From Bdellovibrionales bacterium (GTDB lineage Bacteria; Bdellovibrionota; Bdellovibrionia; Bdellovibrionales; UBA1609), in NCBI GenBank assembly GCA_965199825.1, contig OZ241329.1:2176001-2240000 (forward strand): a DNA stretch of 64,000 bases, written 5' to 3'. Within the stretch, counting starts at the first letter, position 1; the number at the start of each line of letters is the position of its first letter. The position numbers were made by a program. Below are positions 33,001 to 36,000 of the stretch, piece by piece.

Positions 33001-36000
33001 AAATATTGAAAAGGCTCAGCGATTAGCAAGTGGTCTAGATGTGGGAGTGGTTTTGCTCAATCAATGGAAGCCCGCCGATGGACTGACGCCGCGCCAGGGC
33101 CGCAAGGCCTCGGGCGTTGGACTCTTAAATCCGCAAGCCATGCTCGATTTTTTTAGCAGCAGCAAAACCGTAATGTGAAAAAAGGTTGATCCTTTAGGCG
33201 TTAGTCCCTATACCTTTTGTTTCCGTGTCATTGCGGGGTGGTAGTTAAGTTGGTTATAACGTCCGCCTGTCACGCGGAAGGCCGCGGGTTCGAGTCCCGT
33301 CCACCCCGCCAATAATAAAAAGAAAAAGATAAAACCCAAAAGACAAACAAAATTCTGTTCGAAGTTCAAACGCCTTCATGCGGGGTGGACGGGACGAGAA
33401 GGTTGAACGCGAACCCGTGGGCGATTCGACCAAAGGGAGAATTGAGTGCGGGGCGGCGGCGCCGGATGCGCCGACGAGCGTTCAAGCCGACTGCATGGCA
33501 GGACGCAGGGCTGAAGGTGGGAACACGAGGATCAAGCGAGTTTCGAGCAAAGCGAGAAGCAAGCGCAATTCATCCCTAAAATACAAATTTCAGACAGGCA
33601 CACCTTCTGAAAATTAGCTTTGTAGTAGCAAACAAGATTTGTTTTAAGTAATCTAAAGTTATTTAGTGGATAAAATAAATTAGGTTTTGATTATCGATAA
33701 ATCAATTCCTTTGAGTTTTATAAATATTGTTCTGATCAAAAGCTAGATGAAGAAATTTGAAAAATTGAATTTTTATTTCAGGATCCATCGCAAGTGAAGG
33801 CGATCGACTTATGGTGACCATGCGTGAGGACCAGTGGGACTCGTCCTCCAATGTTTTACGTAAACTAATGTTATTTGTTTCTGCAGGTGAGGCTTTAAAA
33901 CTGAATCTGGCAACTGGGGTTGATCACTGACATGTCCCATCGTTCATCATGCCCGTGATAATTCCAGTGACCACGGAGACATTGGACTGATCGGCATTCC
34001 CGTTGGCAGCCAAAAAAGAAGCGCCACTTGCAAACGAGCAATAGTGTCCTTGACCGTTGGAGTTGTAAACAGCCGGTTGATCTGCAATCCTAAAAAATCC
34101 AGCGGGCATGGGAGGGCCACTGCAGGCACCGTCGTTTTGCATCCCATAAGTGATCCCCGTTACCGTTCTGACATTTGAAAGATCACCGTTTCCGTTATCG
34201 GCGATAAAGGTGGCGCTATTGGAAAAGGAACAAAAATGTCCGCTACCGTTCGAGTTATAAATGGTTCCACTTCCTGAAATAATAAAAAATCCACCTGCCA
34301 TAGGGGCAACAACACAAGGCCCAGTCTGTTGCATCATGCTTGTCGCTGAAGCGGCTATGGTTGTGGCGTTGGATTCATCTAAATTTCCGCCGTCAGCCAC
34401 GAATGACGCAATATCCGTATAACCACACCACTGGCCGCTTCCGTTGGAGCGAAAAACAGCAGGCGTGCCATCAATTCTAAAAAATCCTGCGGGCAAAACG
34501 GTCGGACTCAAAGGTGTTGAGCCACCGTTGAGCACTGGGTTTTGTGCAACTGTTCCGGGAACTCTCACTGTCCCCATTGAAATTCCTTGGGGTTCTAAAC
34601 CGATTGCTGAAATTCCGTAAATATAAATCGGCTGCCCCGCGAATTGGGCAAGCGAACTGGGGAGCGGAATCTCAAAACGATAATTTGAACCGCCTCCTTG
34701 ACAAGCTTGATTGACGGCAGCCTCACTTGGTAAATTAGCTGGATATTGCCCAATATAAATTCCACTTCCTGCGGGGCCTTTGACGTACACATTCACTTGA
34801 GCTGAAGTTGCAACTAATGAGGAGCAGGTCCAACCCATAATTTTTGTTTGATCCGCAGAAATTCCGTCAACCATACCAATGGTGGTGTGATCGGCAGGTA
34901 AACCCATCGAGTGTTGTCTTCGATAGTTGAGTAAAGCAGATTTCACCGGACTGTATGTAGTAAATCCCCATTGTTTAGTTGGCTCTATATCCGCGGAGTG
35001 TTGCTGATCGGGGCCTTCGTCTTCATCGTTCGGGCCACGGGGACCTTGAAATTCGTTAAATTGGTGCACAAACAAAAAGATGGGATCTAAACTATTTGCC
35101 ACACTCATAAATTGATTAAAAGTATTTCCGCCATCTGTGAGTGCGGCATCTGGACTGTTCCAGCCGTTTGATCCTGTCACAGCACCTGATGCAGTGAAGG
35201 CTTCAGTTCGGCTTCCTATTTGGGCATAGCTTGGAAATAAATTGTTTGCAGGACTTAGGTGATCAACCCAAGTCCACAGTTGCCACACGGGGTTGACCAT
35301 ATGAGGTGAGTTTGTGGGTGCGGGGTTTGCCCAAAGATTGGGTTGAGAGTCCATATAACCCGCCATAAATCGAAAGGTAAATTTTGAATCCCATCCTTTA
35401 TCTTGAATCGCTTTTTTGAGGAGGGCAAGTGGTGAAGCAGGTGAGGTGTCTTGGCCCGCACCCATAAATACGACGAGTAAGGGCTTACCTTGGTAAATAA
35501 TATTAATATTAGGGTATTTCGAAATTAAATTCGCAAAAAAGCTGACTTGACGGTCAAACGGGCTATTGCCATCTGCACCAATTTGATATTCATTGACCTC
35601 TGCCCCACCAAGAAGTGGAACAATTTTTAGTCTCGTCTTTGAGTTATTGTAGAGCGAGTAAATTGTCGAAACATTATTCGCGATATTGACCACTTGATCT
35701 TTGCCGGCCTGACTACCGCAATTGGAGAGATCACTGCCGAAGGCGCAAGACACACCGTTTGAAGTGTCCAAGGTTACAGCATCAACACCCATCTCTTCGA
35801 GCCAATAAATATGTTGACGAATGATTGCGGGATCGGTGCTGTCGTAACCCGTATTTTGTCCATTTGAGTTTGTCATTGAGGAAGAAGAAAGAAGTGGATT
35901 GTAAAGCGAAGACACATGCTGAGCACCTGGTCCAAACCAACCTTCATATTCCATCACGATCAGTCGCGAATTTTCATTTACATTGAGACTTTGAGAGGCG

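Follow-up and report, generated by a model that had tools for sequence, protein, structure and literature searches.

What is the folded repeat behind the tRNA-Asp gene of this Bdellovibrionales bacterium (assembly GCA_965199825.1), and how did it come to stand behind other tRNA genes as well? The window, the whole stretch analysed here, is 64,000 nucleotides long, and its position 1 is position 2,176,001 of contig OZ241329.1. An initial annotation had described the repeat as simply a new structured RNA, with the caveat that it might be an attachment region of integrating elements. That description was only partly supported: the ends derive from the host tRNA gene, the repeat bears the marks of a mobile insertion, and its layout resembles that of the RtT repeats of E. 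coli. The attachment-site caveat was closer to the evidence. Probably, the repeat is a mobile element, about 180-270 bp long, non-autonomous and devoid of genes, which inserts at the T-loops of tRNA and tmRNA genes and has its ends rewritten from the target.

The tRNA-Asp locus

The features of the locus, in window positions, are as follows.

33235..33311, + strand: tRNA-Asp(GTC), the intact host gene (ARAGORN; Rfam RF00005, 72 bits)
33289..33311, + strand: target mirrored by the box, namely the tRNA-Asp T-loop, the 3' strands of its T-stem and acceptor stem, and CCA
33312..33374, + strand: A-rich spacer (from the sequence)
33375..33400, + strand: anti-tRNA box, the reverse complement of the tRNA-Asp T-arm and acceptor 3' strand
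33403..33485, + strand: core, a three-way junction
33403-33410 with 33478-33485, + strand: P1 of the core
33414-33452, + strand: P2, a long hairpin with a tandem G-A motif
33454-33476, + strand: P3, a hairpin with a GGAU loop
33486..33532, + strand: remaining 3' part of the core, holding another GGA-type loop (33498-33506) and the end motif of the subfamily (33519-33531)
33533..33585, + strand: eroded right end, with an unrelated short hairpin at the place of the relatives' direct copy
33586..33826, + strand: AT-rich tail, duplicated along with the element (142/185 and 49/56 positions identical to the second copy)
33924..36131, - strand: 735-aa ORF between the copies, with a lipoprotein-like N-terminus (by eye) and no Pfam family
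36317..37279, - strand: 320-aa ORF between the copies, with no Pfam family
37582..38031, + strand: second copy (box, core and tail), with no tRNA upstream

The span first given for the repeat, 33370..33545, starts slightly early, as the unit runs from about 33375; its seven places in the genome and its fold were right, and both tRNA-derived ends had been missed. The box and tRNA-Asp form an inverted repeat with arms at 33289-33309 and 33380-33400. Sixteen of 16 nt are exact at 33380-33395, the CCA lies outside the box, and the best match of the box to any other tRNA tail here is 9 nt. Two T-loop positions are substituted in it, as they are in E. coli rtT at tRNA-Tyr. On the right side, the longest direct match to the tRNA-Asp tail is 6 nt. 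The window copy would go back to an older insertion that has since eroded: its direct copy is gone, and box and core have been kept. There is no terminator-like site within 33000-34100, including the spacer, so read-through from the tRNA is plausible.

The second window copy retains the Asp-specific box, and the duplication starts at the box. It had been described as 98% like the Asp-linked copy, and indeed 167 of 171 positions match. The AT-rich tail is only 77% identical between the duplicates, which points to selection or gene conversion. The 64-79-aa frames over the element differ between the two copies and compensatory pairing favours structure, which speaks against a protein-coding reading. 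Folded as a single sequence, the window copy does not stand out (z = -1.68).

Copies in this genome and distribution of the family

Our own covariance model, R1, gives seven matches in this genome, at the places named earlier. In contig positions, the copies trail tRNA-Asp (2209370-2209545), tRNA-Met (739592-739766, - strand), tRNA-Gln (1904669-1904842), tRNA-Pro-CGG (2455264-2455427) and tRNA-Leu-CAG (two in tandem, 1646877-1647057 and 1646699-1646841, - strand); the seventh is the second window copy (2213577-2213751). By ARAGORN coordinates the first copies begin 43-113 nt past a same-strand tRNA, which agrees with the claim that six copies trail tRNA genes. Their reported G+C richness also stands: G+C is 64% in 33370-33545, 53-64% in the six remaining copies and 44% in the contig. 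Searches against Rfam returned nothing at E up to 10 except tRNA and chance matches. The family is new to Rfam 15, and membership in RtT, TwoAYGGAY or any other Rfam family was rejected.

The family had been called order-wide. Its extent was understated, as R1 also matches genomes in the phylum set: 33/109 family, 31/151 order and 16/151 phylum genomes carry it (each count including this genome), with as many as 19 matches per genome, while 76/109 family genomes have none. Related cores were found in other phyla. A tRNA or tmRNA gene lies at most 160 nt upstream for 107 of 143 non-identical matches and at most 700 nt upstream for 125. The hosts of 106 first copies from 40 genomes comprise 29 isoacceptors and tmRNA, and tRNA-Gln, named before as the most constant host, is the commonest (15/106). 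The genomes are related, and all of these counts overstate the number of independent events.

Fold and covariation

The strong covariation claimed for the repeat was confirmed on a plain MAFFT alignment of 38 copies outside the R1 building set. There, 96.2% of 1594 cells are standard pairs, compared with 80.7% (sd 0.6) in 500 shuffles, none of which reaches it, and 30 of 42 pairs show changes on both sides. Sliding the partners leaves 33-45% standard pairs, a generous control in that the structure was predicted from the same alignment. The covariation is therefore real and not just a product of model fitting. Over 117 distinct copies in a model-fitted alignment, pairing is 94% in P2, 98% in P3 and only 59% in P1.

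G-U or U-G pairs outnumber A-C or C-A in the core by 168 to 19 in 2658 cells. This strand-specific asymmetry shows that the core folds on the tRNA-sense strand, and it supports the earlier claim of a conserved fold trailing tRNA and tmRNA genes. The box stem has no such asymmetry (109 vs 100). The P3 loop contains GGA in 84/117 copies, but A(N)GGA in only 30/117 and CGA instead in 21.

Ends derived from the host tRNA

An intact copy follows one layout: the tRNA gene, a spacer (often with a terminator), the anti-tRNA box, the folded core and a direct copy of the tRNA 3' end from C56. Every copy opens with the reverse complement of the T-arm and acceptor strand of its own host tRNA. We compared box and tRNA in the 106 first copies from 40 genomes, which were found with a model that does not include the upstream tRNA. 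On average, 11.1 of 12 box positions match the own tRNA, against 8.8 (sd 0.1, maximum 9.1) in 301 label shuffles. Among 72 distinct tails, the own tail is strictly best in 68/106 and tied in 17/106. At T-loop position 59 the box agrees with its own tRNA in 102/105 copies (46 expected by chance) and at position 57 in 92/105 (49 expected), and the match fades to chance about 18 nt out. Most boxes end short of CCA; that of a tRNA-Cys subfamily does cover it.

The direct copy is present at 16/18 or better in 75/106 first copies, among them the Pro and Leu copies of this genome, and is absent from the window copy. It begins exactly at C56 in 68 of the 75, with the right junction at the foot of a conserved hairpin. 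The duplication extends past CCA in 31/57 cases, and in 19/57 both copies lack CCA, which argues that the sequence was copied from DNA and not from mature tRNA. Together with five cases of CCA on the left only, and with most boxes short of CCA, the 19 cases also led us to reject a tRNA-primed retroelement.

Probable movement between tRNA genes

The box and the direct copy differ with the host tRNA, and the core, sometimes with the spacer, is common to different tRNA genes of one genome. In genome G214, copies behind Asn, Ser-GCT, Ser-GGA and Met tRNAs share a spacer of about 90 nt and have cores of 95-98% nearest-neighbour identity; their boxes differ at those T-loop bases where the host tRNAs differ. 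The core tree tracks host genus far better than tRNA type: genus takes 31 changes (70.9 when shuffled, sd 2.4) and isoacceptor takes 79 (85.4, sd 1.9). A weak tRNA signal is left, with 3/500 shuffles as low, or 18/500 without genus g62. The nearest core lies at another tRNA of the same genome in 39/106 cases, at the same tRNA of another genome in 18 and at neither in 49. Genus g62 has a single copy at tRNA-Gln in all seven loci read, which looks like vertical maintenance. In genus g22 (eight genomes), the tuf-tRNA-Trp site is filled in three genomes and empty in five, and DNA past the direct copy in G174 resembles DNA past the tRNA in the empty G180. These sites are compared between species and are compatible with gain or loss.

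How could such an element move? Its target would be TTCRANTCC, a motif conserved in the T-loops of tRNA and tmRNA genes. The element may travel as a folded single strand, DNA or RNA, guided by pairing between its box and the T-arm of the target. The 3' end of the core would be joined to C56 at the foot of the last hairpin, possibly by an enzyme acting in trans. DNA synthesis on the chromosome would then complete the tRNA gene, which would give a duplication of variable length. Finally, the box may be overwritten from the new target by template switching, the mechanism of quasi-palindrome correction, and this would account for a box that matches the T-loop almost perfectly and the more distant positions less and less well. 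Extra tandem copies, and copies that flank cargo such as the window pair, would be secondary products of recombination.

Comparison with RtT and the IS200/IS605 elements

RtT (rttR, tyrT-tyrV operon, RF00391) has the same layout in the K-12 sequence: a spacer, an antisense box, a folded core, an 18-19-nt direct copy of the tRNA end, and tandem arrays. Both kinds of repeat lie on the same strand directly behind the tRNA, often in tandem, and copy the tRNA 3' end directly (75/106 here). In K-12, RF00391 matches at 18 places, which follow tRNAs for Tyr, Pro, Lys, Ser and Arg. A two-base departure from the T-loop complement occurs in the RtT box at Tyr, Ser and Pro, and likewise in 9/106 of our copies. 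The tandem G-A motif of RtT, described in PMC7657543, is found in our element too. The two differ in that the core here is longer and differently built, and the direct copy starts at C56 here and at about position 58-59 in RtT. In K-12 a clear box of 8-10 nt stands behind the Tyr and Ser tRNAs; behind Pro and Lys tRNAs it matches its host no better than it matches other tRNAs, and behind Arg tRNAs there is no box. RF00391 had no match in this genome at E up to 10 (the E. coli control was positive). Nor did it match any of 19 element loci in a search that scored the E. coli locus at 133-138 bits; R1 had no match in K-12. The common layout of RtT and this element points to a way of moving.

REP/REPIN and IS200/IS605 elements include small non-autonomous units with strand-specific imperfect hairpins that are moved by HUH Y1 transposases. 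IS608 guide sequences choose the target by base pairing, to which a choice guided by the box would be analogous. These elements are not known to make a long target duplication. Our element differs from them further in that the core is not linked to any Y1 gene; in the high-copy genomes G190, G149 and G214, Y1 searches gave no match at all.

Alternative explanations and similar systems

Host maintenance of a functional RNA made from the tRNA precursor is compatible with mobility, and we consider it unlikely as the main cause, though it is the strongest of the alternatives. This low probability covers its variants jointly: a CsrA sponge that works by way of the GGA loops, or an RNA that uses the box to dampen tRNA maturation in cis. 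The strand-specific wobble pairs of the core are in its favour, as is the closer identity of the element than of the AT-rich tail in the window duplicate. The genome encodes CsrA and most P3 loops hold GGA, but the fuller A(N)GGA is in the minority and CGA replaces it in some copies. When entire precursors are folded computationally, 86/101 show pairing between the box and the upstream tRNA, and the window precursor is modelled at -132.9 kcal/mol compared with -112.1 kcal/mol with the cloverleaf forced; however, the box stem lacks a preference for G-U over A-C. Some copies lie within tRNA operons, or between tRNA-Trp and secE, and according to 10.1101/2024.07.17.603846 processing of the tyrT transcript yields the rtT RNA of E. 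coli. On the other side, 63/101 spacers contain a run of at least five T, many of them in terminator-like hairpins upstream of the core, most family genomes have no match, and new boxes on identical cores are left unexplained.

TwoAYGGAY (RF01731) has a variable copy number, and mobile-like spread and Csr/Rsm binding have been proposed for it; it resembles our element in that a basal stem carries hairpins whose loops are (A)YGGAY-like, and the description, in the part accessible to us, mentions no link to tRNA genes and no tRNA-derived ends (10.64898/2026.09.22.753630). A looser AYGGAY-like motif occurs at least twice in 90/143 cores (shuffled mean 0.5 per core), and strict AYGGAY is rare among P3 loops. 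RF01731 has no match in this genome or in 22 element-bearing stretches.

Movement might also need no dedicated enzyme, if ectopic gene conversion or replication template switching occurred between similar T-arms of highly transcribed tRNA genes, with the fold merely promoting it. We found no partner enzyme, the length of the duplication varies, and copies occur in tandem arrays or are partly duplicated; one such form is mis-targeted and lies near the anticodon arm of tRNA-Trp. This explanation is improbable given a right junction that is fixed to one base in 68/75 at a conserved hairpin foot and that recurs in distant phyla, and given conserved loop motifs that suggest protein binding.

Tyrosine-integrase islands and prophages have a T-loop junction, an intact tRNA upstream and a displaced 3' fragment downstream, and a T-loop class of island integration was reportedly described by Williams in 2002. 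The T-loop crossover and displaced tRNA 3' fragment of our element are similar, some copies stand behind tRNA fragments at island ends, and the window pair flanks two genes. Could the direct copy be the attR of an island that shrank to its attachment region? A classical island brings its own tRNA 3' end and is specific for one tRNA. The finding of one core of about 200 bp at 29 isoacceptors with target-specific ends largely refutes such an origin, which we regard as the least probable of these three. The extra inverted target copy is left unexplained by it, only one of 176 neighbouring ORFs is an integrase, and no core lies near 15 integrase loci from five high-copy genomes. Where a copy stands at an island end, the island apparently arrived later and displaced the element.

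A possible class of tRNA-homing elements

We tentatively suggest, at somewhat less than even chances, that this element, RtT and similar units in many phyla form one widespread class of mobile elements that home to tRNA genes by a chemistry not described so far. Its components would be a folded single strand, an antisense T-loop guide, one fixed joining base and the rewriting of the guide for each target. One core could then colonise nearly any tRNA gene without breaking it. RtT, whose function as a small RNA has been listed as unknown for decades, would represent such a mobile class in E. coli, and the question of its nature would become testable. Any enzyme acting in trans would be a naturally retargetable site-specific insertion system and worth hunting, and short att-like repeats behind tRNA genes would no longer automatically be island scars. 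Our comparison provides evidence that RtT-like repeats move between tRNA genes and gain target-specific ends; outside subscription papers and old scans, we found no description of this in the literature.

Searches for an enzyme and for carriers

Among neighbouring ORFs (106 + 70), we found only one IS110 transposase, one integrase, one Y1 transposase and one Hjc-like protein. No core occurred in 56 loci around GIY-YIG, integrase, Y1 and RT genes, and no R1 match lay near 15 Y1 loci. G190 has no RT, and the GIY-YIG proteins of G190 and G149 are only UvrC-sized. Protein-family searches likewise brought up no partner enzyme. A scan of the element loci for small GIY-YIG motifs found none; three of 22 GIY-YIG loci adjoin a tRNA or tmRNA gene, without direct copy or core.

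Phage and plasmid collections gave no element match, and four pattern scans of viral contigs gave 11, 0, 1 and 8 matches, none of them an element. Two sequencing runs containing the stretch (their kind is unrecorded) had no joints or circles, and a raw-read run gave 0 reads on it. RNA runs shared only tRNA words with the stretch, and none of them holds this organism. Pattern scans of metagenomes gave 0 and then 36 matches; apart from chance matches, five loci held R1 matches.

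Element copies and their fold

The G+C-rich repeat described in the initial annotation does lie behind tRNA-Asp(GTC) (window 33235-33311). Our covariance model of the element (R1; 11 training copies, 47 pairs) gave seven matches in the source genome, the copy number first reported, and Rfam 15 indeed holds no family for it. The second window copy, at 37582, is identical to the first at 167 of 171 positions. The covariation claimed for the fold was recovered in two alignments, one of 117 distinct copies fitted to the model (83.2 per cent of 5276 cells paired, against 63.1 per cent shuffled), the other made with plain MAFFT from 38 copies outside R1 training (96.2 per cent of 1594 cells, against 80.7 per cent; 0/500 shuffles). 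Helix P1 is the weakest, with 59 per cent paired in the model-fitted alignment. The fold is strand-specific: the core helices contain 168 G-U/U-G but 19 A-C/C-A pairs, so the tRNA-sense strand is the one on which the structure operates, whether as RNA or as single-stranded DNA.

Two genes without a Pfam family sit between the window copies (33924-37279), and in another genome (G200, locus L070) two Asn-type copies enclose a trypsin-like gene; paired copies may thus bracket cargo genes. The window also encodes (40318-42750) a protein of 810 aa that looks secreted and combines cysteine-rich repeats with a DUF4214 match at its C-terminus.

Distribution behind tRNA genes

R1 matched 33/109 genomes of the family (up to 19 matches in one genome), 31/151 of the order, and 16/151 of the phylum. 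We examined most, not all, of the listed matches, aligning 122 + 26 loci, of which 143 were non-identical. A tRNA or tmRNA gene lies upstream on the same strand within 160 nt in 107/143 and within 700 nt in 125/143, with none inside the retrieved DNA in seventeen. Longer flanks for five such cases revealed one tRNA-Leu gene missed by ARAGORN and one tRNA end at an assembly gap; the other three lie where islands appear to end, and in two of these a clear tRNA 3' fragment precedes the copy. Removing one permuted-tmRNA call from the 107 left 106 first copies from forty genomes, representing twenty-nine isoacceptors and tmRNA and including ten training sequences.

Ends tailored to the host tRNA

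At its start the window copy mirrors the 3' part of the tRNA it follows, 33380-33395 being the reverse complement of 33294-33309. This antisense box was overlooked in the initial annotation. Across all 39 tRNA and tmRNA genes of the source genome, the longest antisense matches up to 400 nt downstream were found at Asp (16 nt), Leu-CAG (14), Pro-CGG (13), Met (12), tmRNA (11), and Gln (10). A 10-nt match far downstream of Val-GAC is probably chance, and the remaining thirty-two genes had at most 8 nt. In the Pro and Leu copies the right end is, in addition, a direct copy of the host tRNA 3' end, a feature since lost from the Asp, Met, and Gln copies. The 11-nt match to the 3' end of the tmRNA (contig C1, 1424503-1424869) lies ~62 nt behind the gene, followed by hairpins with no R1 match; this is perhaps a different or decayed core.

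The ends are target-specific throughout the 106 first copies. Over the initial 12 nt of the host tRNA tail the box agrees at a mean of 11.1 positions, compared to 8.8 (sd 0.1) when shuffled, including T-loop position 59 in 102/105 and position 57 in 92/105; agreement falls to chance ~18 nt out. R1 favours intact copies because it includes the box-to-direct-copy stem, and the upstream tRNA is not part of the model. The right junction is fixed: a direct copy is present in 75/106 and starts at C56 in 68/75, and C56 is precisely where the final hairpin closes in one large subfamily. Among fifty-seven non-tandem cases the direct copy is typically 16-50 nt, extending past CCA in thirty-one, with CCA absent on both sides in nineteen; the duplication was thus templated by DNA.

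Some copies depart from this arrangement. In a tRNA-Cys subfamily (L289, L392, L393, L407) the box spans the terminal 13 nt, CCA included, and the direct copy begins in the acceptor stem, not at C56. Six of the thirty-one copies whose direct copy is degraded (e.g. L040, L042, L077, L011), from several genomes, have the same RATTAC motif in place of the T-loop part, possibly as a programmed variant that destroys the site. Partial cores also occur upstream of tRNA-Trp (L274, L275, L276) and tRNA-Val (L012) accompanied by a duplication of the 5' portion of the gene; the L275 box mirrors the tRNA-Trp anticodon arm, which is similar in sequence to the T-loop motif.

Comparison with RtT and reach of the layout

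The tyrT region of E. coli K-12 has the same order of parts as our element. The RtT model (RF00391) gave eighteen matches in K-12. Of sixteen loci examined, twelve were scored by script as ending in 18-19 nt copied from the adjacent tRNA; three overlap tRNA-Lys, where the script assignment was wrong and by eye they end in the tRNA-Lys tail; one is a weak non-element match. The Tyr and Ser loci have a clear antisense box, those at Pro and Lys an equivocal one, and Arg has none. The element works like RtT, yet the Rfam test does not place it in that family, since RF00391 and R1 show no cross-match. The element resembles TwoAYGGAY (RF01731) in loop motifs at most. The family is real, uncatalogued, RtT-like, and tRNA-tailored.

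A layout pattern of T-loop, antisense T-loop, and direct T-loop had at least 120 matches in named genomes. In eighty loci there were eighty-one matches, sixty-seven beginning in a tRNA gene and 44/67 of these with a direct copy of at least 15 nt; the pattern itself imposes a 9-nt box (at least 12 nt in twenty-three), and several matches are ordinary tRNA clusters. The matches listed carry titles from Bacillota, Spirochaetota, Patescibacteria, Actinomycetota, and Planctomycetota, among others. R1 found twenty matches in seventy-six of these loci (four titled Bdellovibrionales excluded); the highest scores were 64 bits in a planctomycete, 60 in a WWE3 genome, and 36-48 in spirochaetes. Because of these matches the core family reaches beyond the phylum, and the layout extends further still.

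One published account links rtT to tyrT processing, with an unknown mode of action (10.1101/2024.07.17.603846); another calls RtT function unknown and reports the apparent insertion of a copy in a single Erwinia strain (PMC7542023). The literature covered also included 10.64898/2026.09.22.753630, PMC2864571, PMC12306157, and PMC7657543, as well as PMC10542128, which had no matching passage. We found no description of an antisense box or target-specific rewriting in the literature searched, the 1991 RtT paper being outside its scope.

Proposed mobility and alternative readings

The element has spread within genomes, where cores 95-98 per cent identical lie behind different tRNAs. In genome G214 the spacer and core are common to four copies, whereas the T-loop bases in each box are those of the host tRNA. 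On a tree of the 106 cores (a quick tree of short sequences from related, non-independent genomes), host genus required 31 changes (70.9 shuffled), genome 67 (88.5), and isoacceptor 79 (85.4). In one genus, the tRNA-Trp site behind tuf is filled in G174, G228, and G202 and empty in G180, G184, G210, G158, and G182. The DNA after the G174 direct copy resembles that after the G180 tRNA, so the right-hand copy is the original tRNA end.

We consider non-autonomous mobile DNA the best reading and a reasonably likely one. The box would pair with the target T-arm, the element would be joined at C56, fill-in synthesis would restore the tRNA gene, and template switching would overwrite the box. Quasi-palindrome correction and IS608-type guides are known processes for comparison. 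Against pure mobility, genus g62 has one copy at tRNA-Gln in 7/7 loci examined, and the window duplicate is 98 per cent conserved in the element but 77 per cent in the tail.

An RNA function seems unlikely to us. In whole-precursor folding, which ignores co-transcriptional folding and tertiary structure, the box is predicted to pair with the upstream tRNA rather than the direct copy in 86/101, and an effect on tRNA maturation is conceivable. The source genome encodes CsrA, but only 30/117 P3 loops fit A(N)GGA. Conversion without any enzyme is quite improbable, and an island relic, T-loop integration being a known class among islands, is the most doubtful reading.

Returning to mobile DNA, no mobilising enzyme was found among neighbouring ORFs, in protein-family searches, in a small GIY-YIG motif scan, or in the vicinity of candidate enzyme genes, and a family-wide GIY-YIG test was negative for the element family. 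Viral contigs and phage and plasmid collections contained no carrier, and the sequencing runs examined showed neither a transcript nor, where they contained the stretch, an intermediate. Three genomes of the family have free-standing GIY-YIG ORFs adjoining tRNA-Leu, tRNA-Lys/Glu, and tmRNA genes (L373, L378, L388); neither a direct copy nor a core accompanies them. A partial copy at a contig end is followed after 206 nt by an IS110 transposase (L138, 379-1497), the sole such case in 106 neighbours. At seventeen places on C1 (e.g. 1215194-1215544, just upstream of tRNA-Val, L352), ORFs of ~170-220 aa, presumably RAYT-like by size, weakly match PF01797 (Y1 transposase); none has an R1 core nearby. 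The 12-kb contig C2 has a reverse transcriptase domain (1384-1863, L366) in a 1291-aa open frame.

Other repeats near tRNA genes

A second, shorter palindromic repeat (60-90 nt) occurs on C1 behind tRNA-Glu, tRNA-Met (2154860), and tRNA-Arg-TCT and at three non-tRNA sites:
168181-168270, short palindromic repeat
2154945, short palindromic repeat
1818842-1818900, short palindromic repeat
169823, short palindromic repeat
177835-177900, short palindromic repeat
797544, short palindromic repeat

Behind tRNA-Arg-TCG (C1, 1967632-1967960, L006) there is a tandem GC-rich repeat of ~105 nt, with no R1 match. Hairpins resembling the short palindromic repeat lie behind tRNA-Leu-TAG.
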